Origin: Opitutus sp. GAS368
Lineage (GTDB): Bacteria > Verrucomicrobiota > Verrucomicrobiia > Opitutales > Opitutaceae
Direction of reading: 5' to 3'
NCBI GenBank assembly: GCA_945859965.1
Contig: CAMAPG010000001.1
Span: 1-62,255 of the forward strand
Length of the DNA: 62,255 bases
The translations under genes were made by a program, and so were the position numbers. Below, piece after piece: positions 8,753 to 62,255 of the stretch (its first letter is position 1; every line of letters begins with the position of its first letter). Under the pieces are notes generated by a model that was not told the DNA's origin, made no database searches, and saw only the letters and a list, made by a program, of their open reading frames with translations.

Positions 8753-10531
8753 ATGAAAACATCAGCCCTAGCTCACATGAAAATCCAACACACAATCAGC
8801 GTGCTCATCTTCGCGATGGGCAATGCCTTTGCACAGGCGCCTGCCGCTCCCGCGGCCATTGCGCCGCCGACCGCGCCAGCGCCTCCGGCTGCATTCCGGC
8901 CACCAACCGCGCCCGGCGCTGTTGACCCGGCTGCCGTTCCACCGGCGGCAGCGAAGCCCGCGGCCCCGGCTGCGATCGAACCTCCGATCCAGGATCCGGC
9001 GGCAGCGCCCGGCACTCCAGCTTCGGCACCCGGCACGGTTGACGTCGGTGCCATTCCAGCGGTTGATGCAAACGCACCAAAGGTCAGTGAATTCCAGGGT
9101 GACGAAATCGGCCTCGTGCTTCGCACGCTCGCCCGCCAGGCGAAGATGAATGTCGTCGTCAGCCCGCAGGTGGTGGGTGTGGTGAATATGCGAATCGAGA
9201 ACAAGACACCGCGCGAGGTCGTCACGATCATCTGTCAGGCAAACGCACTCATCATTGATGAGCTGAACGATGTCTCCTACATCAAGACTGCCGCGGAAAA
9301 GGCCAAGGAGCCGACGGAGGCGTACCGATACACGTTCAGCTACGCCAAGGCCGACATCGCCGCGCCGCTGCTCCAAAGCCAGCTTTCCAGCGGACTCGCT
9401 CCGCAGATTGATGCGCGGACAAACACGGTCTTCTATCGCGAAGGCAAAACGAATGCGGACAAGATCAAGGAATTTCTCGTCACGATTGATAAGCCCACCC
9501 AGCAGGTCATGATTGAGGCGCGTCTTGTGGAAGTGACTGCCAATCCAAAGCAAAGCTACGGCATCAACTGGGCCGGTGTCGTAGGCGGCTCCACCACTCC
9601 ACAGACTTTCAAGTACGGTGGATCAACCTCCGCCGCCGAGACCGGCGGCCCCGCCGACGCGATCATCCTGGATAAGAATAGTGGAAAGCCAAAACTCGCG
9701 GACTTCGTGATGGACGGCGCAACCAGGGGCGGATTCGGTGACGCGCTCGCCGGACAGTTCGCCATCCTGTCGCTGCCGCAGATGTCGGCGACACTCCGCC
9801 TTCTCAATGAGGACAGCGACGCCGAGTTTCTCGCCAATCCGCGCATCGTCACGGCGAACAACCAGAAGGCAAACATCAAGATCACCCGGTCGCAGCCGGT
9901 GCCGCAGCTCAACTTCAATGAGCAGACGGCGCAGGCGGTGTTCAGCGGGTTTCAGGACAAGGAATTCGGCAATTCGCTCGTCGTCACCCCGAGCATCAAC
10001 AAGGACAGCTTCGTGACCCTCGCGGTGAAGCCGGAGATCAGCAACAAGGTCGGCGATGCCACCTTCACGTTTGGCGGCGCAACGGTCGCGAGCCCGATCA
10101 TAGACAAGCGCGAGTTTGAATCCAACGTCCTCATCAAGAGTGGCGACACCCTCGCGATCGGCGGCCTGCTTCAGGATGAAACCTCGAAGGGGCGCACCAA
10201 GGTTCCGGTCATGGGCGACATCCCGCTCTTCGGCTACCTGTTCCAGGAGCGCTTGAACCAGCGCACCAAGCGCAACCTGCTCGTGTTCGTCACGCCGACA
10301 GTCATCAAGCAGGGCTACGGCACCGGCCTCGAATCGCAGGTCACCGGGCTCAAGGACAGTGGCGAGGAGTTCGCCGATCCGCAAGGCTGGCGGAACAACG
10401 CCCGCGGGACGATTCGGATCGTCCCCACATCGAATACGCAGAACGCCGCCGAGTACCCGATCCCCGGCCAGGCCGCCACGCCCCGCAAAGTGGGCTCGAA
10501 GTACAAGGTCAGCGCCTCCACGCGCAACTGA
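8753..10531 (+). CDS. secretin (type II/III secretion system protein family; PilQ/GspD-like)
   Basis: The C-terminal secretin domain reads NPRIVTANNQKANIKITRSQPVP ... SPIIDKREFESNVLIKSGDTLAIGGLLQDE ... VPVMGDIPLFGYLFQ ... NLLVFVTPTVIK. The signal peptide is MKIQHTISVLIFAMGNAFAQA, so ATG 8777 is an alternative start and the track start at 8666 is unlikely. A Pro/Ala-rich linker lies at ~8835-9060. Confidence 0.85.
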   Translation: MKTSALAHMKIQHTISVLIFAMGNAFAQAPAAPAAIAPPTAPAPPAAFRPPTAPGAVDPAAVPPAAAKPAAPAAIEPPIQDPAAAPGTPASAPGTVDVGAIPAVDANAPKVSEFQGDEIGLVLRTLARQAKMNVVVSPQVVGVVNMRIENKTPREVVTIICQANALIIDELNDVSYIKTAAEKAKEPTEAYRYTFSYAKADIAAPLLQSQLSSGLAPQIDARTNTVFYREGKTNADKIKEFLVTIDKPTQQVMIEARLVEVTANPKQSYGINWAGVVGGSTTPQTFKYGGSTSAAETGGPADAIILDKNSGKPKLADFVMDGATRGGFGDALAGQFAILSLPQMSATLRLLNEDSDAEFLANPRIVTANNQKANIKITRSQPVPQLNFNEQTAQAVFSGFQDKEFGNSLVVTPSINKDSFVTLAVKPEISNKVGDATFTFGGATVASPIIDKREFESNVLIKSGDTLAIGGLLQDETSKGRTKVPVMGDIPLFGYLFQERLNQRTKRNLLVFVTPTVIKQGYGTGLESQVTGLKDSGEEFADPQGWRNNARGTIRIVPTSNTQNAAEYPIPGQAATPRKVGSKYKVSASTRN

Positions 10532-10554
10532 GCGCGATTCCAATTCCAAAAAAG

Positions 10555-10584
10555 AACACCGGTCATCTGGCCGGTGTTTTTTTT
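10555..10584 (+). terminator. Rho-independent terminator downstream of the secretin gene
   Basis: Stem AACACCGG (10555-10562) pairs with CCGGTGTT (10571-10578) around an 8-nt loop. It runs directly into a T tract of 8 Ts (10577-10584), 24 nt after the stop codon. Confidence 0.6.
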
Positions 10585-10693
10585 GCCGATGCCGCCGGAT
10601 GATGCCTGCGCCCCGATCATCACCAAGTGGACGCCAAAGACTCACGCGCATCTCCTTTTGACTCCACCGCCCCGCCCCGCCTACGATTGCCGC

Positions 10694-11167
10694 ATGGATT
10701 CAGGCGTCCGCCAGCGCATCTACGCATTTCTCGATTCAAAAGGTCTCCGCAAGACTTCGCAGCGCGATGCCATCATCGAGGCGGCATTCAGCACGAAGGA
10801 GCACTACACCGCGGATGATCTCCTCGTGATGGCGAAGAAAGTGGACGGCTCCGTATCGCGCGCGACCGTTTACCGCACCCTGCCGCTGCTGGTGGACAGC
10901 GGCCTGCTGCACGAGATGGACTTCGGGCGCGACCAGAAATTTTACGATCCGAATTACGTGGATCACCCAAACCACAATCATCTCATCTGCATGGATTGCG
11001 GGGACATCGTGGAATTCGAGGATGTGCATATTGACACGCTGGAGGACTGCATCAGCCGCCGGCTCGGGTTCACGCCGACGGGCAAGACCGTCCAGATCAA
11101 GGCCCATTGCGACCAGTTCGTGGCGCTCGGAAAATGCGACCGCCAGAGCCGGCGGAAGCGTGCCTGA
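10694..11167 (+). CDS. Fur-family transcriptional regulator (Fur/Zur/PerR not resolved)
   Basis: 157 aa from ATG 10694. LRKTSQRDAIIEA, SRATVYRTL..L...GLL, HNHLICMDCGDIVEF and the HC...C tail are Fur-family blocks. Confidence 0.85.
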   Translation: MDSGVRQRIYAFLDSKGLRKTSQRDAIIEAAFSTKEHYTADDLLVMAKKVDGSVSRATVYRTLPLLVDSGLLHEMDFGRDQKFYDPNYVDHPNHNHLICMDCGDIVEFEDVHIDTLEDCISRRLGFTPTGKTVQIKAHCDQFVALGKCDRQSRRKRA

Positions 11168-11179
11168 CCGTCGCCGGCG

Positions 11180-12568
11180 CTATCCTTCGGGCAGCGGGCG
11201 GCCTTTTGTCTCTGGGAGGAATGGCAGCACGATGAGGCCGAGGAAGTAGATGCCGGCGAGCCAGCACGCCGCCTCGCGGAAGGCGGTGAGTTGCGCATCG
11301 GCCTTGGCCACGGCGTCGGCGGTCGCGGGCAGCGCGGCCACGGCCTTGTCACCGAGCGCCTTTTGCATCGAGCCCAGCGTGATCGGGCCGGTGGCGGCGA
11401 TGAAGCGGCCGACGTTGTAGCAGAAGCTGACACCTGTGCTGCGCAGTCGCGTCGGAAACAGCTCCGGCAGGTAAATCGCGAAGCCGGCGAAGATGCCGAG
11501 TTGGCAAAATCCCATGAGGCCGGTCATCCAGATGTCGGCCTTGGTCTGGAAATTTCTGTAGAAGTAGATCGTGACTGCGAAGGCCGCCAGGAAGCCGAAG
11601 GCGAAGATGGACCTGCGGCCGTAGATCGCGGCCAGCTTCGAGAACACGATCATGCCGAAGAACGCGCCGATGTTTTGCACGATCAGGTTGGCGGCTGTCC
11701 ACCACTGCTTGCCTGCCGTAATCTCCGCGGGCGAGAGGTTCTGCGCGCGCAGCGCCTTTTCGATAGCGGGGCCGATCAGCGCGCCGCTGAAGAAGCCGAC
11801 GCCCCACAGGCCGACGACGCCCGCGACGCAAAGGATCATGCCGAGGATGGCCGGCCGGCGCCACTGGGCCTCGCCGAAGAGGCTGGCGTAGCTGCCCATC
11901 GCCTTGCCGCCGACCTCCCGACTGGCCGCGCGCGCCGCGATCCACTTCGCTGGTTCCTTTAGACGCACCATGATGAAGATGCAGAGGAAGGCCGGTGCTG
12001 CGCCGATCCAGAAAAGATATTTCCATGAGACCATTGGGTCCGCCTCGGCCAGCGCCATCGCGCAGAGGCCGGCGGTGACGTTGCCCACGGCCGAGAGCGC
12101 CTGCAGGAGGCCGAGTGCCTTGGGCCGCGCCTGATCCGGCAGCGAATCGGCGACGAGCGCCACCGCCAGGCCGAACACGCCGCCGACGCCGAGGCCGGTG
12201 AGCGCCCGGAAGATCATGAACTGCGTGACGTCCTGCGCAAAGGCCGAGAGCCCCGTGCAGAGCGAATAGATGAGGACCGTGAGCGAGAGAGTCTTGGCCC
12301 TGCCAATGCGATCACCGACCGACCCGAAGATGAGGCCGCCCAGCGCCCAGCCCGCGACGAAGATGCTCTGCGCCCAGCCGCTGAGCTGTTTCAGAACCAG
12401 CGGGTCGGTGCCGGGCGCGGCGAGGGCCTTGATGGCGTTGTCGCGCGCCAGAATGAAGAGCTGCTGGTCCAGGCAGTCGAAGAGCCACGCCAACGAGGCG
12501 ATGGTGAAGACGAACCAGTGATTGCTCGAGAGCGTGCGATACCAAGGCAGGTTTTCTTGTTCGGTCAT
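11180..12568 (-). CDS. MFS transporter
   Basis: 462 aa from the internal ATG (MTEQENLPWY). About 12 hydrophobic segments. The MFS loop 2-3 signature is GSVGDRIGRAK. The upstream extension in the track (to 12844) is non-protein-like. Confidence 0.85.
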   Translation of the reverse strand: MTEQENLPWYRTLSSNHWFVFTIASLAWLFDCLDQQLFILARDNAIKALAAPGTDPLVLKQLSGWAQSIFVAGWALGGLIFGSVGDRIGRAKTLSLTVLIYSLCTGLSAFAQDVTQFMIFRALTGLGVGGVFGLAVALVADSLPDQARPKALGLLQALSAVGNVTAGLCAMALAEADPMVSWKYLFWIGAAPAFLCIFIMVRLKEPAKWIAARAASREVGGKAMGSYASLFGEAQWRRPAILGMILCVAGVVGLWGVGFFSGALIGPAIEKALRAQNLSPAEITAGKQWWTAANLIVQNIGAFFGMIVFSKLAAIYGRRSIFAFGFLAAFAVTIYFYRNFQTKADIWMTGLMGFCQLGIFAGFAIYLPELFPTRLRSTGVSFCYNVGRFIAATGPITLGSMQKALGDKAVAALPATADAVAKADAQLTAFREAACWLAGIYFLGLIVLPFLPETKGRPLPEG

Positions 12569-33230: not shown

Positions 33231-33397
33231 TTTTCAAAACCGTAGCGCAAGCCCCCACCTGGAGCTCCGGACTGGGAGGAAGTCGCTGTCGCGCCAAAAT
33301 CATCGCCGCCTCCCTCCTGGGCTTCTCTCTCGCGTTGCTTGGGAATTGCTTCTGGAATGTCGCACTTTTTCCGCTTAGCATCTCCAACACCCGAGTC

Positions 33398-43403: not shown

Positions 43404-44249
43404 ATGAATGTGAAATTCCCAAGGCTGACACGCCGCCGTTTCTGCGCGGGCATGCTCGCAGGGATGCTCGGCACGGGCGGCTGGATGCGCTTCGTCGAGC
43501 CGTGGTGGTTCAAGACGACCCGCCGCGAGATTCCGCTCGGGCTTGGAGGCGGCCGGTTGAAGCTGCTGCACTTGTCCGATTTTCACGCGGACCCGATGCC
43601 GCTCGATCACCTCGCGAAGTGCATCCGTGCCGGTATCGCGGAGAAGCCGGATCTCATCTGCCTCACGGGCGATTTCATCACTTGGAAATACGAGCAGTGG
43701 GATGCCTACGCCGCGTTGCTGGGCGAAGCGGCCATGGCGGCACCTACGTTTGCGGTCCTCGGAAATCACGATGGAGGTCGCTGGGCGCGCTGGAGCGGGT
43801 ATGCGGACACGACGGCTGTGCGCGCTTTGCTGGAGAAGTCGGGGGTGCGGATGCTGCACAATGACGCAACGCGATTCGAGAACGCGAACGGGAAGATCAC
43901 GCTCGCCGGGCTCGGCGACTTGTGGGCAGGGGAGATGGAACCTGAGCCGCTGCTCGCGAGCCGGAAGCGGGATCGCGACCTGCCGCTGGTTTTGATGTCA
44001 CACAATCCGGACACAAAGGATGAACTACGCTCATTCGAGTGGGATCTCATGCTGAGCGGCCACACGCACGGTGGGCAGCTCCTGCTGCCGATGGTCGGGA
44101 CACCGTTCGCGCCGGTTTTGGACAAGCGCTACGTGCGCGATTTGCACCGCATCGGAGATCGCTGGCTCTACATCACGGCGGGGGTGGGCTGCCTTCACAC
44201 GGCCCGGTTCAATTGCAGGCCGGAGATCTCGCTGCTGACGCTGGTCTGA
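43404..44249 (+). CDS. metallophosphoesterase (calcineurin-like) with Tat-type signal
   Basis: 281 aa. The Tat motif is LTRRRFCAGMLAG. LLHLSDFHAD, LTGDF, LGNHD, MSHNP and SGHTHGGQ are the metallophosphoesterase motifs. Confidence 0.85.
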   Translation: MNVKFPRLTRRRFCAGMLAGMLGTGGWMRFVEPWWFKTTRREIPLGLGGGRLKLLHLSDFHADPMPLDHLAKCIRAGIAEKPDLICLTGDFITWKYEQWDAYAALLGEAAMAAPTFAVLGNHDGGRWARWSGYADTTAVRALLEKSGVRMLHNDATRFENANGKITLAGLGDLWAGEMEPEPLLASRKRDRDLPLVLMSHNPDTKDELRSFEWDLMLSGHTHGGQLLLPMVGTPFAPVLDKRYVRDLHRIGDRWLYITAGVGCLHTARFNCRPEISLLTLV

Positions 44250-44394
44250 GCCGGAACGATGCAGTTGGTGCGGCGCGATCCGTCCGGAACACAGGCTTCC
44301 AGCCTGTGCGGTGGGCAGGCATCATGCCTGCGGCGTCCGCACAGGCTGGAAGCCTGTGTTCCCGCCGCGCTCCCGCAACTGCATCGTTCCGGCT
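44249..44394. repeat. 146-bp long-hairpin palindromic intergenic element
   Basis: A perfect 19-bp outer inverted repeat, AGCCGGAACGATGCAGTTG (44249-44267) / CAACTGCATCGTTCCGGCT (44376-44394). A perfect 26-bp inner inverted repeat spans 44286-44311 / 44337-44362. The central palindrome is GCAGGCATCATGCCTGC (44315-44331). The element starts within the stop codon of the upstream gene. Confidence 0.85.
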
Positions 44395-44461
44395 GAGTGG
44401 TTCAAGGATGGAGGTGAAAATCCTGCTTCTTAACCTGGGGCCGCCCGGTCATTGATCGGGC

Positions 44462-50716: not shown

Positions 50717-52105
50717 CTACTTCTTCTTCGCGTCTTCCCTCTTTTTGCGCTCGGCCTCTTCGTTTTTCTTTCTTTCAGCCTCCTGCCTCTTCTTCTCAGC
50801 CTCCTGCCTCGCCCCTTCGGCCTTTTCCTTCTCGGCTTTTTCCCTAGCCTCGCGAGCTGCTTTTTCACTGGCTTCGCGCGCGGCCTTGGCCCTTGCCTCC
50901 TGATCGGCCCTTTCCTTTGCTTCGCGAGCATGTTGCTCGGACTTTAACCTGGCGGCGAGGTCTGCCTTTTCCTTCTCAGACTTGGCCCGCGCCTCCTGGT
51001 CGGCCTTCTCCTTTGCTTCGCGGGCTGCTTTTTCACTGGCTTCGCGCGCGGCTTTGGCCCGCGCTTCCTGATCGGCCCTCTCCTTTGCTTCGCGAGCCTG
51101 TTGCTCGGACTTTAACCGGGCGGCGAGGTCTGCCTTTTCCCTCTCAGACTTGGCCCGCGCCTCCTGGTCGGCCTTCTCCTTTGCTTCGCGAGCTGCTTTT
51201 TCACTGGCTTCGCGCGCGGCCTTGGCCCTCGCCTCTTGATCGGCCCTTTCCTTTACTTCGCGAGCCTGTTGCTCGGACTTTAACCTGGCGGCGAGGTCTG
51301 CCTTTTCCTTCTCAGACTTGGCCCTCGCTTCCTGGTCGGCCTTCTCCTTTGCTTCGCGGGCTGCTTTTTCACTGGCTTCGCGCGCGGCCTTGGCCCTCGC
51401 CTCCTGATCGGCCCTTTCCTTTGCTTCGCGAGCCTGTTGCTCGGACTTCAATCTGGCGGCGAGGTCTGTTTTTTCACGGGCCTCCCGGTCAAGCTGCTCT
51501 CTTGCAGCGCGGCGATCCTGCTCGTCGCGCTGTCGCTGATCCTGCGCGGCTTGCTCGCGCGCCCGCTTCTGCCGCCACTCCAACTCTAACCGCTCCTTTT
51601 CAATCAGCGCCAGACGTGCATTCAGCAAAGCGGTTTGTTGCGCTTGCTCTTGTTCGAGTTTCGTCAGCCGCCCGCGCTCCGCCCGCAATTGCTGTTCGAA
51701 GGCCGTGCGTTCCTGCTCCGATTGCTGCCGCTCTTGCTGGGCATCAATCTCGGCCAGTCGCGCCCTCTGCTGCGCCAACATGCGGTCACGTTCCGCCAAC
51801 TGCCGCTGCATTTCCGCCTGACGCACCATCTCTTCAGCCTGCAATCGCCCCTGTTCTGGATTGGAAACGACAGGGTCCCTGGGATTGACAACGATCCTGC
51901 CATCATTGCCGGGCGTTTCCCGCTGCGGCGTCTTGACCGGTGGCACGTTGAGCACCGGGGGCTTGGAAACTTTTTTCTCCGACGCTGAAGTCGGTCTGCC
52001 CGCGAGACCCTCCTTGTCGGCATCATTGGCAGGAGCGGTGGATGACGGTTTGTCGCAACCGGCAAAAAGCAAACAGACCGCGACTGCCAGGAATTTGGTT
52101 TTCAT
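50717..52105 (-). CDS. coiled-coil lipoprotein with 56-aa tandem repeats (TolA-like low-complexity E/A/K/R region)
   Basis: 462 aa. The lipobox is LLFAGC (Cys17). The rest is almost entirely charged helical sequence, including 3.75 tandem copies of DLAARLKSEQQAREAKERADQEARAKAAREASEKAAREAKEKADQEARAKSEKEKA. Confidence 0.8.
   Translation of the reverse strand: MKTKFLAVAVCLLFAGCDKPSSTAPANDADKEGLAGRPTSASEKKVSKPPVLNVPPVKTPQRETPGNDGRIVVNPRDPVVSNPEQGRLQAEEMVRQAEMQRQLAERDRMLAQQRARLAEIDAQQERQQSEQERTAFEQQLRAERGRLTKLEQEQAQQTALLNARLALIEKERLELEWRQKRAREQAAQDQRQRDEQDRRAAREQLDREAREKTDLAARLKSEQQAREAKERADQEARAKAAREASEKAAREAKEKADQEARAKSEKEKADLAARLKSEQQAREVKERADQEARAKAAREASEKAAREAKEKADQEARAKSEREKADLAARLKSEQQAREAKERADQEARAKAAREASEKAAREAKEKADQEARAKSEKEKADLAARLKSEQHAREAKERADQEARAKAAREASEKAAREAREKAEKEKAEGARQEAEKKRQEAERKKNEEAERKKREDAKKK
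50834..51466. repeat. 168-bp tandem repeat, ~3.75 copies, in-frame inside the lipoprotein gene
   Basis: The anchor CTCGGACTTTAACC(T/G)GGCGGCGAGGTCTGCC recurs at 50936, 51104 and 51272, and in diverged form at 51440. This gives an exact period of 168 nt with few substitutions between copies. Confidence 0.9.
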
Positions 52106-52590
52106 CGGTTTGGTTGTTCAGGGCATCCGACCGGAGTTGCGGCGCGATTATTCAACGCGGACATGGCCGGGAAAAAATCGTTGGATCCCAGCAGCTCGAC
52201 TCCCAGGAATTTACTTTCGCGCCCGCCGCACCGGAAACGGTCAGAACCGCGACGGGCGTCGAGAAAGGGGGATTCCGATGGGGGAGACTCGTTTGTGGTG
52301 AGATTCATCCGTTGCGGTGACGGTGGCGAGTGTGGACCTCCGTTCCGCATTGCCAAGCTGTTTTCGGCAGCGGTTTTGAAGGGAGCAGGAAACTTCAGGC
52401 TGTAGGTGAGGGCACAGGCGTGGCACCAATCGCTTCACTCGCCATCAAGGACCAGGATGGAGCCGTCTTCGCGGGAATCTCGACCGGTTGGCCTGAGGCG
52501 TGGCGTTGGTCATCCTCGCGAAGGTGCTGGGGATGCAGGGCTGGTAGCGGTGCTCGACTAAATGGGGCGCGCCGTTACAAAGCGCGCGAC

Positions 52591-53280
52591 ATGCTTTCTG
52601 TCGTCATCCCGCTTTTTAACGAGGAGGAAAATATCGCGCCTTTGCAGGAGGAACTCGCCGCCGCGCTTGCGGGCAGGGATTACGAACTGGTGCTCGTGGA
52701 TGATTGCTCGACGGACAAGACGCTGGAGCGCATCAAGCGCGGGCCGGGGGTGAGGGTGATCGCGTTTGAGAAAAATACAGGGCAGAGCGCGGCGATGTAT
52801 GCCGGGATCAACGCGGCGAAGGGCGACACAATCGTGCTGCTCGATGGCGACCGGCAGAATGATCCCGCGGACATTCCGCGGATGCTTGCGAAGCTGGACG
52901 AAGGTTTCGATCTTGTGTGCGGCTGGCGCGTGAAGCGGCAGGATAATTTCTCGAAGCGCATCAGCAGCAGGATCGCGAATTTCGTGCGCAGCCGGTTCAC
53001 GAAGGACGGTGTGCATGACACGGGTTGCTCGCTGAAGGTGATGAGGACGCAGTGCCGGGAGGCGCTGTTCCTGTTTCGCGGGATGCACCGGTTCATCCCT
53101 GCGCTGGTGAAAGGGCTGGGCTATCGCGTGACGGAGATGCCGACGAATCACCGCCCTCGCGTGGCGGGCGTGAGCAAATACGGATTCGGCAGCCGCGCCT
53201 GGAAGGCAACGTGCGACATGTTCGCGGTGCGCTGGTTCCTGTCGCGGCAATTGCAGGTGCGAGTGCGGCGGGAGGGCTGA
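52591..53280 (+). CDS. family 2 glycosyltransferase (polyprenyl-phosphate sugar transferase type, DPM1/ArnC-like)
   Basis: 229 aa from MLSVVIPLFNEEENI. YELVLVDDCSTD, the LLDGDRQNDP (DxD) block and GMHRFIPALV are typical blocks. The upstream part of the track ORF (52330-52590) is not protein-like. Confidence 0.85.
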   Translation: MLSVVIPLFNEEENIAPLQEELAAALAGRDYELVLVDDCSTDKTLERIKRGPGVRVIAFEKNTGQSAAMYAGINAAKGDTIVLLDGDRQNDPADIPRMLAKLDEGFDLVCGWRVKRQDNFSKRISSRIANFVRSRFTKDGVHDTGCSLKVMRTQCREALFLFRGMHRFIPALVKGLGYRVTEMPTNHRPRVAGVSKYGFGSRAWKATCDMFAVRWFLSRQLQVRVRREG

Positions 53281-53282
53281 TC

Positions 53283-56200
53283 CTACGGGACGACCGTGAC
53301 CTCGATGCGGTAGAAACGCTTTGTGCTGTCATTCGGCAGCGTGCCGGTGACGGTGCCATCGTCGGTCCACATCATCGCTGCACCCGTGCCGGTGGCGGCT
53401 GCGGAACCTGCCTGCCACGAGAGCAGATCGTGGCTGTACATCACGCGATAGCTGCGGCCGATGCTCGTGGGGAATGTCACGGTGGCTGTTCCCGCGGGGC
53501 TATTATATGTCGTGCTGAAAGCGTAGCGATCCGGGATGCCGGGGGTTGTCGCGAAGATGAATTCCCTGAGGTTCGAGTCGCCGTCGCCGTCACTGTCCAG
53601 CGCGGCATCGGCGGCGTTGTGGCGGTTGAGGCCGTTGGCGATTTCGTAATCGTCCGGGATGCCGTCGGAGTCGCTGTCGGCGGCGCCCTGCTTGATGATG
53701 GTGAAGGTGTCCGGGGTGCTGCTGTTTTCGCGGAGAAAGGTGGCATCGAGTCGCGTGCCGTTCACATCGAGGACGAGGGATCCGAGATTATTCAGGGAAA
53801 AGTAGTGTGCAGGGTGGTTGAGGGATGTGCAGGTGACCTGCCCCGCGGAGCCGGCCACGGCATACACTGCGCCGAAATGATCGCGCGGGCCGGTGAGCGG
53901 TTTGATGTAGGCGCCGTTGCCTGCCGGACGCCCATCGCCCGCGTTCTTTTTCATCGCCGGGACGAGTGTCGTGGAGAGGCCGTAGTGGCCGTCGAGCAGG
54001 TAGGATCGCTCATAGCAATGGCTGTGGCCGCTGAGCACGAGATCCACGCCGCCAGCTTCGAGGATGGGCAGGAAGTTCTGCCGCATCTGGATCAGGGAAC
54101 CCAGGCTGTCGGTGGAGCTGTCGGAATCGTGGTCGCGTTTGGAGTACGGCGGGTGATGAAAAAAGCAGATGATCCATGTCGCAGTGGTGCTGGCGAGATC
54201 GGTTCGCAGCCAGGCCGCCATGGAGCCATCCTCGTTGATGCCAGCGGTGGCCGGATTGTCCACCGCGCGGCTGGAAGTCATCGAATCGAGGGCGATGAAG
54301 TGGATATTTCCGTAGTCAAACGAGTAGTAATGCTCGGTTCCTGATGCCACGCCGCCGCACTCCCCGGCCGTGGGCAAGGAGTAGATGTCGAAGTAGGGAT
54401 AAGCCGGGGAATTGATGATGGCACTTTCGGTTTCATGGTTTCCGATGCAGGACCAGAAGGGCGTCCTGCTCAGCATGGTGGGATAGATGTCGAACACGGC
54501 TGCTTGATACTCGCTGTCCGTGCCCGAATTGTAGGCGTTGTCGCCGAGTTGAAGGACGAGGCTCGGCGTGTTCGCCTGTGTCCAGTTGTAGAAGGCATCG
54601 CGCACTGCGCGCTGATCGTCGTTTGCCTTGCCCGCATCGCCCAGTACCCAGATCCGGGTGTTCACCGAAGTCCCGGTCGCTGGTGGTGTCTTGAAAGTGT
54701 AATTCGCACCGCTCGCGAGCGTGTCCGTCGCGGAGCCTGCGCTGTAATAGTAGGTCGTGTTGGGCGTGAGGCCTGTGAGCGTGACGACATGATCGAATGG
54801 CGAGACCGGGATCACACTTTCATCCGCGGTCTGGTTCAAGTCCGCGATGTCTGTCCCGAACCGGACCCGCCCCAGCGTGCTCCGCGTGCTGCGCCAACGG
54901 ACCGTCATCGTCGTTGGTGTGGCCTTTTGCAGATAGGGGCCCCGCGTCAATGTCCCGGAGCCGGGTGCCACCGTGACATCAATCGCCGATGACGTGGCGG
55001 TGCCGTTAGCCACCGCCGTGAGGGTGTGGCTCCCCGCCGCCGCCGCATTCCAAGTGTAACTGTACGGGCTGGTGTTGTCGGTCCCCAGCAAGGCAGGTCC
55101 GTCGTAAAATGACACGCTGCTGATTGTCCCGCTGCCTGTGGCTGCGATGGCGTTGATCGTAAAGTCGCTACCGATCGTTGCCCCATTCGCCGGACTTGTG
55201 ATGCTGACAACCGGACCCGCAAATGGGGTGAAGCTGACGTTGTCAATCGTGTAGTCGCCGTCGGGGCTCGTGCCGTTGTCATCCGCCCATACGAGGTAGA
55301 GGCTTCCCCCGTCCGCCCAATTCAGCGCCGTCAAGTAGATGCTGATGCCTGCCGTGCTTCCGGCAGTGCTGAGCAGGTAGTCCCCCGCGGCTGTCCAACT
55401 GCCCGCCGAGCCCGTCTTGCTCCAGTACACCCGGTGCCCCTTGATCCACTCTGCCGGCGTGACCGACGCCAGGCCGAGCGTGTAAGAAACGGCGAGCGTG
55501 TCCAGAGTCCCGCTTGAGGTATTCCGCAACGGTGCCATCAGCAGCGTCACCTTGTTTCCGTTCGGCTGAGTCCCGAGTTTTTTGTCGCCCGAGCGCCAGT
55601 ATGCATTCGCTGCCGTCCCGCTGCCAGCCTGCGAACTGATTGCCGTGTTGATGTTGCCAGCGGCAATGCCGTTCATGACGGAGTCAATGCCCGCGGCATC
55701 CACCACCTCCGTCGTCCCCCCGGCTACACTCAGCGTCGCCCACTGCCTCGCGGCTGCGAGCGTTTCAAAAGTCAGCGTCCCGCTGCCGGTCGGCCCGACG
55801 GAAATGGGGGACTGCACGGTGACAGTCACTGCCGCGGACGTGACCGATGCAGCGGCGGAATCCCGAGCCACAGCCGAAAGCGTGTGGTTGCCCAGCGTGC
55901 CGGGACTCCAGGAGAACTGGAATGGCGAAGCCGTGTCGCTGCCGAGCAAGATGGCGCCGTCGTAAAAGTCCACCTGGGTGACCGGTCCCTCGGCATCGGT
56001 CGCACTGGCGACGATCAAGGCGGGAAAACCCTGTGTGGCCTGACTCCCATTGGCGGGGCTTGTAATCGAAACTGTCGGAGGAAGGTCGGCAGCGGTGACA
56101 TTGATGATCGCCGATGTGGTCGTGTTCGCGTTGTTGTCGGTCGCCACCGCAGTCAATTGATGAGGCCCTGCCACGGCTCCGGGCCTGATAAAGCTGTAGG

Positions 56201-57203
56201 GACTCGTCACATCCTCACCCAGAAGGATTCCGTCCTCGAAAAATCGCACCTTGCTCACCGAACCCTCGTCCACTGCAACCGCGGTGATGGTGTAATTCGC
56301 GATACTCACCATCGCACTGGCGGCAGGGCTTGAGATGTAAATCTCCGGCGGGCCCGGTATCGCCGGCGCAAACGCCGCGATGGACTGGGCCTTCCGGCTT
56401 GTGCCCGTGGTGGTCCATGTGTCCGTGGTCAATCCGGCGACAGCCACCTCGCGAGTGGCGCACGCTGCCATCATATTCACGCTTCCTCCTTGCTCCCACC
56501 GCTCCACCATGCCGCTTGCTGTTGGGGTGAAAGTAACGGCGCCATCTCCATTATTGACGACATCCACCAGCCACGCGCCGTTGGTCAGCGTCGTAATCCC
56601 CAGGGAATACGTCCCGCCAGAACCGGCGGCATCGGCAATCGCCACCGCCTCGGGGGCGGATTGGGCGACACCGAACAGCGACACGGATCCGCACGCGGCC
56701 CCGCTCCCACTGCTGACAGCCGGGCTGAGCGTCACGGTGATCATTCCTGCCCCCACTCTGGGCGCGGCCAGGAACCACAACTCGGTGGTGTTGAATGGTG
56801 TTCCTTGCACGGCACGGCTGCCCGTCACCTTCGTGAACACCTGCGTACCGAAGGTTACGCCGGTTGCGGCTGAATCCGTGGTGCTTTCCGTCGTAACGCC
56901 CACCACCAGCATGCGATTGGCGCCAAGTCCCACCGTGTGCGACCATGCAACACTCGTAACCCCGGCCCCGCCCGTCACACCGCCCGATGCCGCCGCGTCA
57001 AACGTGATCGCCGCCGGGGACGTGAAGGCGCCGAACGCAAGTATCGTTGCGAGGAGAGGCAGCAAACGCAGTGGCGCGATCAAACCTCCAATGCCGGGGA
57101 GATGGCGCATCCAGCGGATGGTTCCGGCGGCGATGTGCTGGATGCTCGTTCTCATGATGGCGTGCTGAAATTCGGCATGGATTCTATTCGCGGGGCGGGG
57201 CAT
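53283..57203 (-). CDS. multidomain secreted purple-acid-phosphatase-like metallophosphoesterase, copy A (jelly-roll-like N-domain, Ig-like domains, PAP N-domain + catalytic domain, Asp-rich TSP3-like repeats, C-terminal beta domain)
   Basis: 1306 aa. The PAP region (~53733-54953) has RGPYLQ...MTVRW...TYYY, then VLGDAG, LGDNAY, GNHE, FFHHPPY and SGHSHCYER. Three Ig-like repeats are of the type VSFYDG..LLG.D...PY...W......G.H.LTAVA. The Asp-rich stretch is DSDSDGIPDDYE...DSDGDGDSN. Alternative starts are M17 (57155) or M32 (57110), just before the signal peptide. Confidence 0.85.
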   Translation of the reverse strand: MPRPANRIHAEFQHAIMRTSIQHIAAGTIRWMRHLPGIGGLIAPLRLLPLLATILAFGAFTSPAAITFDAAASGGVTGGAGVTSVAWSHTVGLGANRMLVVGVTTESTTDSAATGVTFGTQVFTKVTGSRAVQGTPFNTTELWFLAAPRVGAGMITVTLSPAVSSGSGAACGSVSLFGVAQSAPEAVAIADAAGSGGTYSLGITTLTNGAWLVDVVNNGDGAVTFTPTASGMVERWEQGGSVNMMAACATREVAVAGLTTDTWTTTGTSRKAQSIAAFAPAIPGPPEIYISSPAASAMVSIANYTITAVAVDEGSVSKVRFFEDGILLGEDVTSPYSFIRPGAVAGPHQLTAVATDNNANTTTSAIINVTAADLPPTVSITSPANGSQATQGFPALIVASATDAEGPVTQVDFYDGAILLGSDTASPFQFSWSPGTLGNHTLSAVARDSAAASVTSAAVTVTVQSPISVGPTGSGTLTFETLAAARQWATLSVAGGTTEVVDAAGIDSVMNGIAAGNINTAISSQAGSGTAANAYWRSGDKKLGTQPNGNKVTLLMAPLRNTSSGTLDTLAVSYTLGLASVTPAEWIKGHRVYWSKTGSAGSWTAAGDYLLSTAGSTAGISIYLTALNWADGGSLYLVWADDNGTSPDGDYTIDNVSFTPFAGPVVSITSPANGATIGSDFTINAIAATGSGTISSVSFYDGPALLGTDNTSPYSYTWNAAAAGSHTLTAVANGTATSSAIDVTVAPGSGTLTRGPYLQKATPTTMTVRWRSTRSTLGRVRFGTDIADLNQTADESVIPVSPFDHVVTLTGLTPNTTYYYSAGSATDTLASGANYTFKTPPATGTSVNTRIWVLGDAGKANDDQRAVRDAFYNWTQANTPSLVLQLGDNAYNSGTDSEYQAAVFDIYPTMLSRTPFWSCIGNHETESAIINSPAYPYFDIYSLPTAGECGGVASGTEHYYSFDYGNIHFIALDSMTSSRAVDNPATAGINEDGSMAAWLRTDLASTTATWIICFFHHPPYSKRDHDSDSSTDSLGSLIQMRQNFLPILEAGGVDLVLSGHSHCYERSYLLDGHYGLSTTLVPAMKKNAGDGRPAGNGAYIKPLTGPRDHFGAVYAVAGSAGQVTCTSLNHPAHYFSLNNLGSLVLDVNGTRLDATFLRENSSTPDTFTIIKQGAADSDSDGIPDDYEIANGLNRHNAADAALDSDGDGDSNLREFIFATTPGIPDRYAFSTTYNSPAGTATVTFPTSIGRSYRVMYSHDLLSWQAGSAAATGTGAAMMWTDDGTVTGTLPNDSTKRFYRIEVTVVP

Positions 57204-58158
57204 TCGGGATGGGAGCGGCCTGCGTGGTCAGCTCGGATTTGAGTGTGCCATTTGCACTGTCGAGGGCGGCGAGTGCGCGCCGCGAGTCCTCCATGATTTT
57301 GATCATCGCGTGCGAACCGCGCGCGGGGAAGGGGAGGGCGTTCAAGTGATCGAGGAGCGCCTGCCACGCGGCGCGCGAATCCGCGATCCGGCCCGCTTGC
57401 GCGAGGACGGATGCCCGGCGGGCCATCCACGGCTCCGGGCGCGGCGCGGACTTCTGCATGACTTCCACCCGGCGCAGCGCGGCGTCGTAGTCCTTGCCTG
57501 CGATCTCCAACTCCACGAGACGCAGGACGAGGGAAGGCAAGTGTCCCAATTTCTCAATGCCCATCTCCAGCACCTGCACGGCTTGCTTTGCAGAGCCCTC
57601 CGCAGCCAGGGCCCCGGCTGTCTCGCAGAGAAGATCGGGCTCCAGCGTGGGCGCGCGTCCCAGCGCCTCGCGGAACCCTGCTGCCGCATCGGCAGCGCGG
57701 TTCAATTTCGACAAGGCCCGGGCGCGATAGAGGCTTGCCTGGAAGTGTTCAGGCTGGCGGCTGAGAAACCGCTCCAGCACCGGCAGTGCAGCCTTTGCAT
57801 TTCCGGATTCCAGCAGGATGCGCCCATGCAAAAAGTCGGTGTCAATGGACGGATCCAGTTGCTTCGCCCTGTCGCAATCCGAGAGCGCAGCCGGCCAGTC
57901 GGCGTGCTGGCGGCAGAGTTCGGCACGTTGCAGGTGCAGGCCCGCGTTGTGGGGCTGCGCTGCGATTTGCAGGGTGATCCCGGCGATCCGCTCATGCAGA
58001 TCCCCGTGCCCAAAGGCCCACCCGCCCGCAAACAACCATGCTGCAAGGCAGGTCTGGCGTATGGAAATGCGGATGGTTTTCACAGGTGAAGCTGCACAGG
58101 TTGACATGCCCGGGATCAGCACGAGGGCTGCGTTGATCGCCGGCGGTCGTAATACCAA
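57184..58158 (-). CDS. TPR-repeat protein
   Basis: 324 aa (start possibly at M18, 58107). It has a signal-like CLAAWLFAGGWAFG segment, then about 6-7 TPR-like helical pairs (e.g. AGLHLQRAELCRQHADWPAALSDCDRAKQLDP). Its stop overlaps the longest reading of the downstream PAP-like gene by 20 nt. Confidence 0.75.
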   Translation of the reverse strand: MVLRPPAINAALVLIPGMSTCAASPVKTIRISIRQTCLAAWLFAGGWAFGHGDLHERIAGITLQIAAQPHNAGLHLQRAELCRQHADWPAALSDCDRAKQLDPSIDTDFLHGRILLESGNAKAALPVLERFLSRQPEHFQASLYRARALSKLNRAADAAAGFREALGRAPTLEPDLLCETAGALAAEGSAKQAVQVLEMGIEKLGHLPSLVLRLVELEIAGKDYDAALRRVEVMQKSAPRPEPWMARRASVLAQAGRIADSRAAWQALLDHLNALPFPARGSHAMIKIMEDSRRALAALDSANGTLKSELTTQAAPIPNAPPRE

Positions 58159-58292
58159 GCAGGCCCACGACTAAGGCTGATATTCCATCAAGCGCAAGGC
58201 CCCAAATCACAATGGCCGTCCCGCATTCCGGTGTTCGTGCTGGCATCGCGCTTCTGCGCCTGCTGGTCCCGCGCGTGGCGGGAGGGCTGATC

Positions 58293-61200
58293 CTACGGGA
58301 TGACCGTGACTTCGATGCGGTAGAAACGCTTCGTACTCCCCGTCAGCAGAGAGCCGGTGACGGTGCCGTCGTCGGTCCACATCATCGCTGCACCGGTGCC
58401 GGCGACGGCTGTGGAACCTGCCTGCCACGAGAGCAAATCGTGGCTGTACATCACGCGATAGCTGCGGCCGATGCTCGTGGGGAATGTCACGGTGGCTGTT
58501 CCCGCGGCGTTATTATATGTCGTGCTGAAAGCGTAGCGGTCCGGGATGCCGGGGGTTGTCGCGAAGATGAATTCCCTGAGATTGGACTCGCCGTCAAAAT
58601 CGCTGTCGAGCGCGGCATCGGCGGCGTTGAGGCGGTTGAGGCCGTTGGCGATTTCGTAATCGTCCGGGATGCCGTCGGAGTCGCTGTCGGAGTCGCCCTG
58701 CTTGATGATGGTGAAGGTGTCCGGGGTGGCTCCGGTGCTCCTCACGAACGTGGCATCGAGCCGCGTGCCGTTCACATCGAGGACGAGGGATCCGAGGTTA
58801 TTCAGGGAAATGTAGTGTGCGGGGTGGTTGAGGGTTCCACCGGTGGCGTGTCCCGCGGAGCCGGCCACGGCATACACCGCACCGAAATGATCACGCGGGC
58901 CGGTGAGCGGTTTGATGTAGGCGCCGTTGCCTGCCGGTCGCCCATCGCCCGCGTTCTTTTTCATCGCCGGGACGAGTGTCGTGGAGAGGCCGTAGTGGCC
59001 GTCGAGCAGAAAGGAGCGCTCGTAGCAATGGCTGTGGCCGTTGAGCACGAGATCCACGCCGCCCGCCTCGAGGATGGGCAGGAAGTTCTGCCGCATCTGG
59101 ACCATGGCACCCGCGCTGTCGGTGGAACTGTCGGAATTGTGCGAGCCTTTGGTGTACGGCGGGTGATGGAAAAAGCAGATGATCCATGTCGCGGTGGTGC
59201 TGGCGAGATCGGTCCGCAGCCATGCGGCCATAGCGCCATCCTCATTGGTGCCAGCAGTGGCCGGATTGTCCACCGCGCGGCTGGAGGTCATCGAATCGAG
59301 GGCGATGAAGTGGATATTTCCGTGGTCGAACGAGTAGTAATGCTCGGTCCCTGATGCCACGCCGCCGCTCTCCCCGGCCGTGGGCAAGGAGTAGATGTCG
59401 AAGTAGGGATAGGCCGGGGCATTGATGACGGCCTGATCGGTTTCATGGTTTCCGAGGCAGGACCAGAAGGGCGTTTTTCTCAACATCGTCGGGTACTCAT
59501 CGAATACTGCCACTTGGTATTCGCTGTCAGTGCCCGAATCGTAGGCGTTGTCGCCGAGTTGGAGGACGAGATTGGGTGTGCGTGCTCCGGTCCATGTGTA
59601 GAAAGCATCGCGCACAGCGTCCTGGTTTGCATCGCCTTTCCTGCCTGCATCGCCCAGCACCCAGATCCGCGTGTTCAACACGGCCCCGGGCACTGGCGGG
59701 GTTGTGAAGGTGTAGTCTGCGCCGCTTGCGAGCGTGTCGGCTGCGGACCCGATGCTGTAAAAGTAGGTCGTGTTGGGCGTGAGGCCGGTGAGGGTGACGA
59801 CATGATCGAATGGCGAGACAGGGATCACACTTTCATCCACGGTCTGGTTCAAGTCCGCGATGTCTGTTCCGAACCGAACCCGCCCCAGCGTGCTCAGCGT
59901 GCTGCGCCAACGGATCGTCATCGTCGTCGGCGCGGCCTTTTGCAGATAGGGGCCCCGCGTCAATGTCCCGGAGCCGGATGCCACCGTGACATCAATCGCC
60001 GATGACGTGGCGGTGGCGTTGTTGCTGTCCGTAGCCACCGCCGTGAGGGTGTGGCTGCCCGCAGACGCCGCATTCCAAGTGTAGCTGTACGGGCTGGTAT
60101 TGTCGGTCCCGAGCAAATCAACTCCGTCGTAAAATGACACGCTGCTGATTGTCCCGCCGCCCGACGCTGCGATGGCGTTGATCGTGAAGTCGGTGCCGAT
60201 GGTTGCCGCATTCGCCGGACTTGTGATGCTGACGACCGGGCCCGCAAAGGGGGTGAAGCTGATGTCGTCAATCGTGTAGTCGCCGTCGGGACTCAGGCCG
60301 TTGTCATCCGCCCATACGACGTAGAGGCTTCCCCCGTCCGCCCAATTCAACGCCGTCAAATAGATGCTGATGCTTGCCGTGCTTCCGGCAGTGCTGAGCA
60401 GGTAGTCCCCCACGGTCGTCCAACTGCCAGCCTCGCCCGTCTTGCTCCAGTACACCCGGTGCCCCTTGATCCACTCAGCCGGCGTGACCGACGCCAGGCC
60501 GAGCGTGTAGGAAACGGCGAGGGTGTCCAGATTGCCTCCTGAGGCATTTTGCAACGGAGCCATCAGCAGCGTCACCTTGTTCCCGGTCGGCTGAGTCCCG
60601 ATTTTCTTATCCCCGGAGCGCCAGTAGGCGTTTCCCGAGGTCCCGCTGCCAGTTTTCGAGCCGAGCACCCGGTTGATGTTGCCAGCGGAAATGCCGGTCA
60701 TCACGGAGTCAATGCCCACAGCATCCACCACATCCGTCGAATCTCCGGCGACACTCAGCGTGGACCATTGATTCGCGGCCGACAGCGTTTCAAGAGTCAG
60801 CGTCCCGCTGCCAGTCGGCCCGACGGCAATGGGGGACTGCACGGTGACAGTCACTGCCGCGGACGTGACCGATGCACCGGCGGAATCCCAAGCCACAGCC
60901 GCCAGCGTGTGGTCGCCCAGCGTCCCCGGAATCCAGGAGAACTGAAATGGCGAATCTGTATCGCTGCCGAGCAAGATGGCACCGTCGTAAAAGTCCACAC
61001 GGGTGACCGGCCCCTCGGCATCGGTCGCACTGGCGACGATCAAGGCGGGAAAACCCAGTGCGGTCTGGCTCCCACTGGCGTGGCTTGTAATCGAAACTGT
61101 CGGCGGAAGGTCGGCAGCAGTGATTTCGACAGTCGCCGATGTGCTCGTGTTCGCGTTGTTGTCCGTCGCCACCGCAGTCAATTGATGAGGCCCTGGCGCG

Positions 61201-62240
61201 GCTCCGAACCTGATAAAGCTGTAGGGACTCGTCACATCCTCTCCCAGGAGGATCCCGTCCTCGAAAAATTCCACCTTGCTTACCGAACCTTCGTCCACTG
61301 CAACCGCGGTGATGGTGTAATTCGCGATACTCACCATCGCACTGGCGGCAGGGCTTGAGATGTAAATCTCCGGCGGGCCCGGGGTCGCCGGCGCGAACAC
61401 CGCGATGGACTGGGCCTTCCGGCTTGTGCCCGTGGTGGTCCATGTGTCCGTGGCCAGTCCGGCGACAGCCACCTCACGAGTGGCGCACGCTGCCATCATA
61501 TTCCCGCCGCCGCCTTGCTCCCACCGCTCCACCATGTCGGTTGCTGTCGGGGTGAACGTGGTAGAAGTAGTGCTTCCGGTTCCATTGTTGACGACATCCA
61601 CCAGCCACGCGCCGGCGGTCAGGGTCGTGATCCCCAACGAATACGTCCCGCCAGAACCTGCGGCATTGGCAATCGCCACCGCCTCGGGGGCGGATTGGGC
61701 GACACCGAACAGCGATACAGATCCGCACGCGGCCCCGTTCCCACTGCTGACAGCCGGGCTGAGCGTCACGGTGATTGTTCCAGCCCCCACACTGGGCGCA
61801 GCCAGGAACCACAGTTCGGTGGCATTGAAGGAAGTTGTTCCTTCAACCGCGCGGCTGCCCGTCACCTTCGTGAACGCCTGCGTGCCGAACGTCACGCCGG
61901 TTGCGAACGAATCCGTGGTGCTTTCCGTCGTAACGCCCACCACCAGCATGCGATTGGCGCCAAGTCCCACCGTGTGCTGCCATGCAACACTCGCAACCCC
62001 GGTCCCGCCCGCCACGCCGCCCGATGCCGCCGCGTCAAACATGATCGCCGCCGGGGACGTGAAGGCGCCGAATGCGAACATCGTTGCGAGGAGAGGCAGC
62101 AGACGCAGTGGCGCGATCAAACCTCCAATGCCGGGGAGAAGGCGCATCCAGTGGATGGTTCCGGCGGCGATGTGCTGGATGCTCGTTCTCATGATGGCGT
62201 GCTGAAATTCGGCATGGATTCTATTCGCGGGGCGGGGCAT
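58293..62240 (-). CDS. multidomain secreted purple-acid-phosphatase-like metallophosphoesterase, copy B (paralogue of 53283-57203)
   Basis: 1315 aa, collinear with copy A over the full length and carrying the same catalytic motifs (VLGDAG, LGDNAY, GNHE, FFHHPPY, NGHSHCYER). It differs by scattered substitutions and small indels. Confidence 0.85.
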   Translation of the reverse strand: MPRPANRIHAEFQHAIMRTSIQHIAAGTIHWMRLLPGIGGLIAPLRLLPLLATMFAFGAFTSPAAIMFDAAASGGVAGGTGVASVAWQHTVGLGANRMLVVGVTTESTTDSFATGVTFGTQAFTKVTGSRAVEGTTSFNATELWFLAAPSVGAGTITVTLSPAVSSGNGAACGSVSLFGVAQSAPEAVAIANAAGSGGTYSLGITTLTAGAWLVDVVNNGTGSTTSTTFTPTATDMVERWEQGGGGNMMAACATREVAVAGLATDTWTTTGTSRKAQSIAVFAPATPGPPEIYISSPAASAMVSIANYTITAVAVDEGSVSKVEFFEDGILLGEDVTSPYSFIRFGAAPGPHQLTAVATDNNANTSTSATVEITAADLPPTVSITSHASGSQTALGFPALIVASATDAEGPVTRVDFYDGAILLGSDTDSPFQFSWIPGTLGDHTLAAVAWDSAGASVTSAAVTVTVQSPIAVGPTGSGTLTLETLSAANQWSTLSVAGDSTDVVDAVGIDSVMTGISAGNINRVLGSKTGSGTSGNAYWRSGDKKIGTQPTGNKVTLLMAPLQNASGGNLDTLAVSYTLGLASVTPAEWIKGHRVYWSKTGEAGSWTTVGDYLLSTAGSTASISIYLTALNWADGGSLYVVWADDNGLSPDGDYTIDDISFTPFAGPVVSITSPANAATIGTDFTINAIAASGGGTISSVSFYDGVDLLGTDNTSPYSYTWNAASAGSHTLTAVATDSNNATATSSAIDVTVASGSGTLTRGPYLQKAAPTTMTIRWRSTLSTLGRVRFGTDIADLNQTVDESVIPVSPFDHVVTLTGLTPNTTYFYSIGSAADTLASGADYTFTTPPVPGAVLNTRIWVLGDAGRKGDANQDAVRDAFYTWTGARTPNLVLQLGDNAYDSGTDSEYQVAVFDEYPTMLRKTPFWSCLGNHETDQAVINAPAYPYFDIYSLPTAGESGGVASGTEHYYSFDHGNIHFIALDSMTSSRAVDNPATAGTNEDGAMAAWLRTDLASTTATWIICFFHHPPYTKGSHNSDSSTDSAGAMVQMRQNFLPILEAGGVDLVLNGHSHCYERSFLLDGHYGLSTTLVPAMKKNAGDGRPAGNGAYIKPLTGPRDHFGAVYAVAGSAGHATGGTLNHPAHYISLNNLGSLVLDVNGTRLDATFVRSTGATPDTFTIIKQGDSDSDSDGIPDDYEIANGLNRLNAADAALDSDFDGESNLREFIFATTPGIPDRYAFSTTYNNAAGTATVTFPTSIGRSYRVMYSHDLLSWQAGSTAVAGTGAAMMWTDDGTVTGSLLTGSTKRFYRIEVTVIP

Positions 62241-62255
62241 TCGGGATGGGAGCGG
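62221..62255 (-). CDS. 3' end of a second TPR-protein gene (partial, runs off the window)
   Basis: 62221-62255 is identical to 57184-57218, the last 11 codons plus stop (..PIPNAPPRE*) of the TPR gene. This implies the duplicated cassette continues beyond the window. Confidence 0.45.
   Translation of the reverse strand, partial: APIPNAPPRE

Follow-up and report, generated by a model that had tools for sequence, protein, structure and literature searches.

A tandemly duplicated TPR and phosphatase gene pair with a decayed TPR copy and mosaic divergence in verrucomicrobial DNA

The right-hand end of contig CAMAPG010000001.1 (assembly GCA_945859965.1, listed as Opitutus sp. GAS368) raises the question of how two long and similar genes came to stand one behind the other, and what has become of each copy since. 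The window, by which we mean the whole stretch of 62,255 nucleotides (nt) analysed here, carries on its minus strand two genes for purple acid phosphatase (PAP)-type proteins of ~1300 amino acids (aa), PAP-A and PAP-B, and between them an intact gene for a tetratricopeptide repeat (TPR) protein. We find that a unit of 4984 nt has been copied here, and that this is a true, yet ordinary tandem duplication of a conserved TPR and phosphatase pair. Both phosphatase genes are intact, and the second TPR copy is a pseudogene.

A blastn comparison of 58271-62255 with the window returned one non-self match, pairing 58277-62255 with 53267-57218 at 89.6% nucleotide identity over 3986 columns (372 mismatches, 25 gap openings, E=0). 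The two copies are adjacent and collinear and run in the same orientation at offsets of 5010-5037 nt, which marks a tandem duplication. An initial annotation of this DNA had proposed just such collinear copies, with an offset of 5010 nt at the 3' end and 5037 nt at the 5' end ascribed to in-frame indels, and the alignment together with the stop and start codons of the two genes bears this out. The duplicated unit spans window 53267-58250, is repeated head-to-tail, and comprises an upstream region of ~170 nt, the TPR gene, the PAP-type gene and 16 nt of 3' flank. How many copies exist beyond the window, which the same annotation had left unanswered, is settled by contigs extending further. The gene order at the locus is psi-TPR (the pseudogene), PAP-B, TPR, PAP-A, and the gene that follows psi-TPR, for an S41 peptidase, is divergently oriented; the number of copies is therefore exactly two. 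Within the window, a tblastn search for a third PAP or TPR copy recovered only A, B and one TPR.

All parts of the unit lie on the minus strand. PAP-A (53283..57203) encodes 1306 aa from its first ATG, or 1290 aa from M17 (57155), the latter form being protein P0001; PAP-B (58293..62240) has the same domain order and encodes 1315 aa, or 1299 aa from M17 as in protein P0002. Gene callers and database entries begin both proteins at M17 rather than at the first ATG, and the M1-start forms of both open reading frames (ORFs) accordingly gave no exact-sequence database match. The intact TPR partner gene (57184..58083) encodes 299 aa from a GTG start, within an ORF that reaches a TTG at 58158, and its 3' end runs 20 nt into PAP-A, counted from that gene's first ATG. 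The 167 nt upstream of it (58084..58250) lie inside the repeat unit, are duplicated 5' of the TPR pseudogene beyond the window, and presumably hold the promoter and leader. Homology to a related locus, L033 (Logan SRR24472945), ends 17 nt short of the unit's 5' boundary, at 58233. At the right-hand end of the unit, 16 nt after the stop codon are shared (53267..53282, equal to 58277-58292), and in the downstream copy they overlap the last codons of a convergent GT2 gene (ORF 52330..53280 on the plus strand; the called gene is 229 aa). The duplication junction itself is a stretch of 26 nt (58251..58276) that separates the 3' flank of copy B from the upstream region of the TPR gene; it showed no clear match when compared with both outer flanks.

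Metagenome contigs assembled separately from the window carry the same arrangement. P0001 is found on five metagenome contigs and P0002 on three. Contigs L031 (ERZ27265268, 120.6 kb) and L032 (ERZ27265269, 25.6 kb) span both copies and have unique flanks on each side; L035 (ERZ27280287, 45.6 kb) starts exactly at the window's end and, like the window, contains TPR, A and B. Zero mismatches separate the window, L031, L032 and L035, four contigs from three samples, over 53267-62255, and all differences between the window and the other three are confined to a 168-nt coding variable-number tandem repeat (VNTR) further downstream. The left junction is supported by L030, a contig (CAMAUI010000160.1) of a metagenome-assembled genome (MAG) labelled Prosthecobacter debontii, which is 100% identical to L031:4305-10031 across the pseudogene junction and ends 100 nt inside the repeat.

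These longer contigs reveal what became of the second TPR gene. In L031, L032 and L030, copy B is preceded by a TPR pseudogene, of which the 317 nt at L031:9623-9939 correspond to the TPR upstream region and the first ~48 codons at 92.4% identity. A 5-nt insertion (CATAC) shifts the frame, so that the 73-aa remnant ORF is out of the TPR frame after codon 8. This 5' part is joined directly to the final ~40 nt of the TPR gene, the 722 nt between them being deleted (net -717 nt), and the deletion junction falls at a 9-nt imperfect direct repeat, ACGCrGGCC. The upstream copy of the unit consequently measures 4294 nt, that is 4984 - 722 + 5 + 27. The upstream TPR copy was inactivated by the insertion and by a deletion between the short direct repeats. 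In the window, only the 3' remnant of this decayed copy can be seen (62221..62255, minus strand). It matches the last 35 nt of the TPR gene, and the identity of the window's final 35 nt with 57184-57218, on which the initial annotation had relied, is confirmed; the conclusion drawn from it, namely a TPR gene in front of the second copy too, is right historically but now describes a pseudogene. The window ends exactly at the deletion junction, the rest of the pseudogene lying beyond it. At the same junction begins the perfect repeat run in L031, which is 109 nt long and equal to window 57116-57224, and the fact that the window and L035 both break here suggests that assembly stopped at the edge of a repeat. 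Over the 5' TPR segment, the window's TPR gene is closer to its own pseudogene copy than to the L033 TPR.

The two phosphatase genes have fared differently from the second TPR copy. The A and B proteins are 87.4% identical and differ by four in-frame indels totalling 9 residues, with no stop or frameshift in the 1306 codons of A or the 1315 of B; since copy B lies wholly within the window, both reading frames are visibly intact. By the Nei-Gojobori method, the pair has a synonymous distance (dS) of 0.235 and a nonsynonymous distance (dN) of 0.072, giving an overall dN/dS of 0.30. Profiled per domain, the ratio is 0.18-0.47, purifying throughout, and it is 0.10-0.31 in the most diverged island. 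Together with the absence of stops and frameshifts and the retention of all PAP motifs, these values show that both PAP copies are intact and under purifying selection. The initial annotation was therefore right that the copies are clearly diverged, the peptide differences it quoted being present, and that the metallophosphoesterase motifs are conserved (GDAG, GDNAY, GNHE, FFHH and GHSH occur in both). Its suggestion that both copies are functional agrees with the intact ORFs and the dN/dS of 0.30; function itself is a reading of the sequence.

The divergence between A and B is distributed very unevenly along the genes. At 688 four-fold degenerate sites the mean difference is 0.164, and in windows of 40 such sites it ranges from 0.03 (codons 2-74 and 1227-1296) up to 0.53 (codons 838-930), with values of about 0.5 over codons 807-930; both the variance and the maximum exceed those of all 5000 permutations (p<0.0002). 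The strongest divergence is concentrated in one island that covers the catalytic domain's N-terminal half, around motifs I-III, and the genes as a whole show three levels, namely near-identical, intermediate and strongly diverged segments. Conservation of the 3' ~450 nt had been pointed out before, and codons 1172-1296 indeed have a four-fold divergence of 0.03-0.05, but the 5' end is equally conserved.

Additionally, we used as a third sequence, C, the P0003 gene on L033, of which only the central ~700 residues are comparable. Over that region, the synonymous distances are 0.25 for C-A, 0.34 for C-B and 0.29 for A-B. Codons 469-570 give dS values of 0.45 (A-B), 0.42 (B-C) and 0.18 (A-C), and codons 806-945 give 0.64, 0.67 and 0.38 for the same pairs. 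The three-way site patterns (AB 108, AC 133, BC 84) are spatially heterogeneous (chi-square p=0.0009 in 50-codon bins, p=0.009 in 100-codon bins), and a neighbour-joining tree of catalytic domains groups A with the L033 gene and places B as sister to that pair. Heterogeneous silent divergence combined with phylogenetic incongruence indicates that the divergence along A and B is a recombination mosaic, produced by gene conversion or recombination, and not the simple divergence of two copies. The L033 contig is 7347 nt long and carries a locus in the order LysR-TPR-PAP, which could be either the orthologue in a sister species or a third cassette of the lineage studied here. Its TPR gene is 90.7% identical in nucleotides to the window TPR, ungapped over 1048 nt, and its PAP shares only the central ~700 aa (~85% nucleotide identity) and has an unrelated N-terminal part (~380 aa) and an unrelated C-terminal part, which shows domain shuffling within the family.

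What kind of protein, then, has been duplicated? In A numbering, a signal peptide is followed by a beta-sandwich domain (~67-286), two Big_7 modules (287-468), a middle beta domain (469-667), a third Big_7 module (668-752), Pur_ac_phosph_N (753-848), Metallophos (849-~1170), TSP3-like DxDxDG repeats (~1181-1230) and a domain of ~80 aa, which ends in KRFYRIEVTVVP in copy A and is common to the closest homologues. Pfam assigns Metallophos at 60.6 bits (cut-off 21.5) and Pur_ac_phosph_N at 48.2 bits (cut-off 30) in copy A, at 61.6 and 46.5 bits in copy B, and three Big_7 immunoglobulin (Ig)-like modules in each. The motifs VLGDAG, LGDNAY, GNHE, FFHHPPY and GHSHCYER are identical in A and B and nearly invariant in 14 family members, and all seven metal ligands (D, D, Y, N, H, H, H in GDxG/GDxxY/GNH[ED]/xxxH/GHxH) are present in both copies. 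A sequence search with the query region ~801-1083 retrieved as the best solved relatives PDB entries titled 'Purple acid phosphatase', 6git at E 4.3e-16 and 4dhl and 1kbp at E ~5e-10. By their domain pair, their motifs and their relation to solved PAPs, both copies are predicted members of the PAP family, and the N-terminus resembles a Sec signal peptide as judged by eye.

The remaining domains are less easily named. At E<=10, Pfam returned only sub-threshold noise (DUF7868, Cadherin_5) for the N-terminal domain, the middle domain and the C-terminal part, and the one NCBIfam match was a weak one, of the TSP3 repeats to MtsD. An AlphaFold model of residues 60-680 has a mean predicted local distance difference test score (pLDDT) of 80.6 and beta-sandwich modules throughout; because this model is multi-domain, a fold search with it retrieved only generic Ig/Fn3 chains. 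Residues 290-463 match Clostridium thermocellum CbhA (3PDD) at E 5e-19 by sequence and E 3e-14 by model. Big_7/Fn3-like modules of this tandem, Ig-like type serve extracellular enzymes as spacers or for binding; in CbhA they are attached to a glycoside hydrolase, here to a phosphatase.

Comparison with the solved PAPs, 6GIT (which we take to be the wheat PAP phytase) and 4DHL (presumably the red kidney bean Fe(III)-Zn(II) PAP), brings out both likeness and difference. An N-terminal beta-domain followed by a metallophosphoesterase, the five motifs, the seven ligands including the tyrosine, and an export signal are common to all. In contrast, the similarity is remote (E 4e-16 to 5e-10), the catalytic part sits inside a ~1300-aa protein, and the window proteins add three Big_7 modules, two beta domains, TSP3 repeats, a C-terminal domain and a dedicated TPR gene. 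Family membership suggests that each product is most likely an exported, surface- or substrate-tethered acid phosphoesterase for organic-phosphorus acquisition. After Sec export it would be a binuclear-metal, Tyr-ligated acid phosphoesterase, acting outside the cytoplasm and freeing phosphate from organic esters, while the Ig-like and beta-sandwich modules, the putatively Ca-binding TSP3 repeats and the C-terminal domain may tether it to the cell surface or a polymeric substrate. Two enzymes could provide a higher dosage, a slightly different substrate or metal preference, or both. PhoD, PhoX and PhoA are exported bacterial metallo-phosphoesterases presumed to release phosphate from organic phosphorus; PhoX and PhoA belong to other folds and families, and PhoD is a related metallophosphoesterase with a PhoD_N domain and Fe/Ca chemistry. 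They would be functional analogues only, and no Pho-regulon context was found at the window locus. Verrucomicrobiota abound in lakes and soils, habitats in which the turnover of organic phosphorus is important. A separate 281-aa calcineurin-like Metallophos gene lies elsewhere in the window (43404-44249, plus strand) and gave no tblastn match to the PAP query.

We also surveyed the gene pair by tblastn over 29 related loci from species-representative genomes, mostly Verrucomicrobiota, in 25 of which the flank is visible. A TPR homologue adjoins the PAP gene in 24 of these 25, and the two genes often overlap; at many of the loci, the PAP consists of a catalytic core of ~420 aa only. The exception is L017 (9743-12326), where no TPR adjoins and the PAP frame is split into 9743..11866 and 11688..12326, which may reflect a frameshift or a sequencing error in that MAG. 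In the window TPR protein, the signal peptide is directly followed by HGDLHE (H26-G27-x-x-H30), and H-G-x-x-H-[EQ] stands straight after the signal peptide in 23 of 24 TPR proteins. In an alignment of 37 members, G27 never varies, H26 and H30 are each kept in at least 90%, and a APRPEPWMARRA-type motif is likewise invariant. The family appears in the sources only as 'tetratricopeptide repeat protein' or as hypothetical. This TPR(HGxxH)-PAP module is uncharacterised and widespread in Verrucomicrobiota, and is the most interesting by-product of the analysis.

A TPR with signal peptide and HGxxH beside a PAP is the rule at the comparison loci, among them a Chthoniobacter MAG (L001), Prosthecobacter MAGs (L004/L005) and the short-form loci L015-L028. 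These mostly have one PAP, in many cases core-only, whereas the window locus holds the long form twice and a decayed second TPR. A single TPR gene with two PAP genes behind it, in tandem and co-oriented, recurs in the Chthoniobacteraceae MAGs L002 (4854-12939) and L008 (381-8503). There, however, the two PAPs belong to separate older clades (~1500 aa and 908 aa) with no TPR remnant between them, and the pair is an independent, older duplication. That one TPR per several PAPs recurs fits the decay of the second TPR here, and the single remaining TPR protein may serve both enzymes as an assembly, metal-loading or localisation partner. On the strength of the sequence pattern, we tentatively suggest, as an idea that is more doubtful than probable, that the TPR protein might be a dedicated periplasmic maturation factor for exported PAPs, either an Fe/Zn(Mn) metallochaperone or an export or anchoring adaptor, one copy of which is enough for several PAPs. 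The marks of the family would be H-G-x-x-H-[EQ] at the mature N-terminus, on a helix, and the invariant APRPEPWMARRA motif. If true, this would explain why the duplicated TPR was lost while both enzymes were kept, and also the one-TPR/two-PAP arrangement of L002 and L008; it would be new phosphatase biology, useful for heterologous production of bacterial PAPs or phytases. A literature search for bacterial or verrucomicrobial PAPs with a TPR partner or accessory factor found nothing relevant, and neither did one for Prosthecobacter phosphatase duplications. One match, in mBio, was set aside because it concerns a PAP2-family enzyme, not a purple acid phosphatase.

Could the tandem arrangement itself be a product of assembly, either two strain haplotypes of a single-copy locus joined in tandem or a mis-expanded repeat? 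Every supporting contig comes from a short-read metagenome assembly (the contig names are of the k141 type), the window and L035 stop exactly at the repeat boundary, and L030 stops just inside it. Yet the whole order psi-TPR, B, TPR, A, bounded on both sides by unique flanks, is present in each of two contigs from different samples, both 100% identical to the window over 9 kb, and the inter-copy junction is reproduced in every contig. The upstream unit has its own 722-nt deletion, 5-nt insertion and unique left flank, which haplotype chaining would not yield, and the copies differ by 10% where contigs from three samples show 0 mismatches, far above strain variation here. Given the same structure in independent samples, the unit-specific indels and 10% against 0% divergence, an artefact is very unlikely, and with it the assembly collapse or expansion that the initial annotation had named as its alternative. 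Only slightly less improbable is that one PAP copy is already non-functional or becoming a pseudogene, its apparent constraint reflecting the short time since duplication together with conversion. The partner TPR copy has already decayed, redundancy thus being purged at the locus, and gene conversion can keep a dead copy looking healthy; but ~400 substitutions at a dN/dS of 0.30, with every indel in frame and no stop or frameshift, are hard to square with decay, as are the seven metal ligands retained in both copies and the low ratio even in the most diverged island.

The origin of the mosaic is a closer matter. The duplication could be recent, with a baseline silent divergence of ~0.15-0.2, and B could later have received the tracts at ~469-570 and ~806-945 from a distant paralogue or foreign allele, in which case it would be wrong to see in the diverged islands the parts of an older duplication that escaped homogenisation. 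B is the outlier by dS against both A and the L033 gene in the two tracts, the neighbour-joining tree joins A with L033 and not with B, and the family is modular, as the shared central 700 aa of the L033 gene illustrate. No donor sequence was found, however, and the divergence of 0.03-0.05 at the gene ends and the 109-nt perfect run show that homogenisation between A and B does occur. We regard import as a real but minority possibility. Repeated partial conversion between A and B, possibly with exchange involving further family members, is favoured because of the three divergence levels, which it fits at least as well, and the near-identical gene ends.

Several observations weigh against our account as a whole. 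Import into B would explain the mosaic equally, and the short-read assemblies break at the repeat. Export and activity of the PAP copies are read from sequence only, with signal peptides judged by eye, and the role of the TPR protein is drawn from gene adjacency and a conserved motif, its model (pLDDT 92.8) being a generic TPR superhelix for which the fold search returned generic TPR superhelices only. Among the locus neighbours no pst or pho genes of the Pho regulon are seen; promoter consensus scans over the cassette and the pseudogene region gave nothing above shuffled expectation; and a terminator scan found none on the minus strand between B and TPR. Taken with these points, head-to-tail duplication of the 4984-nt unit, presumably in the ancestor of a freshwater Prosthecobacter-like population, followed by decay of one TPR copy and mosaic divergence of two genes for exported PAPs, is in our judgement quite probably the right explanation. 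Duplication, decay of a redundant partner and mosaic homogenisation are textbook bacterial gene-family evolution and not surprising; the locus has value as a clean and sharply bounded example that displays the repeat unit and the junction along with the deletion microhomology and the conversion tracts.

The neighbouring genes encode GT2, a repeat protein, a DUF7133/HEAT/cytochrome c dehydrogenase-like protein, an S9 peptidase, the S41 peptidase and hybrid histidine kinases. On the identities of these neighbours, the idea that the locus belongs to a phosphate-starvation regulon was dropped. The VNTR mentioned above occupies window 50832-51475, where a unit of 168 nt (56 codons) is repeated in 3.8 copies with 93% matches, inside a minus-strand ORF (50717..52105, 462 aa) that has no match in Pfam or NCBIfam. 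The array varies between samples: L032 is 336 nt (two units) shorter, and L031 ends inside it. An Rfam scan of the whole window gave no match, and this includes a nested palindromic intergenic element of ~150 nt at ~44250-44400, between the small Metallophos gene and the S9 peptidase gene. This element, with GGAACACAGGCTTCCAGCCTGTGCGG...CCGCACAGGCTGGAAGCCTGTGTTCC lying within an outer inverted repeat, resembles a repetitive extragenic palindrome or miniature inverted-repeat transposable element, and a second copy stands by the S41 peptidase gene at L031:8303-8467 (59 nt at 100% and 70 nt at 91%). Elsewhere in the window, on the plus strand, are two giant tandem ORFs, 21345-28472 (2375 aa, no Pfam match at E<=1e-5) and 28509-33230 (1573 aa, FG-GAP repeats only). 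They are followed at 33335-36343 by a PSCyt1/PSCyt2/PSD1 (DUF1549/DUF1553) protein, which is typical content for the Planctomycetes-Verrucomicrobia-Chlamydiae (PVC) superphylum.

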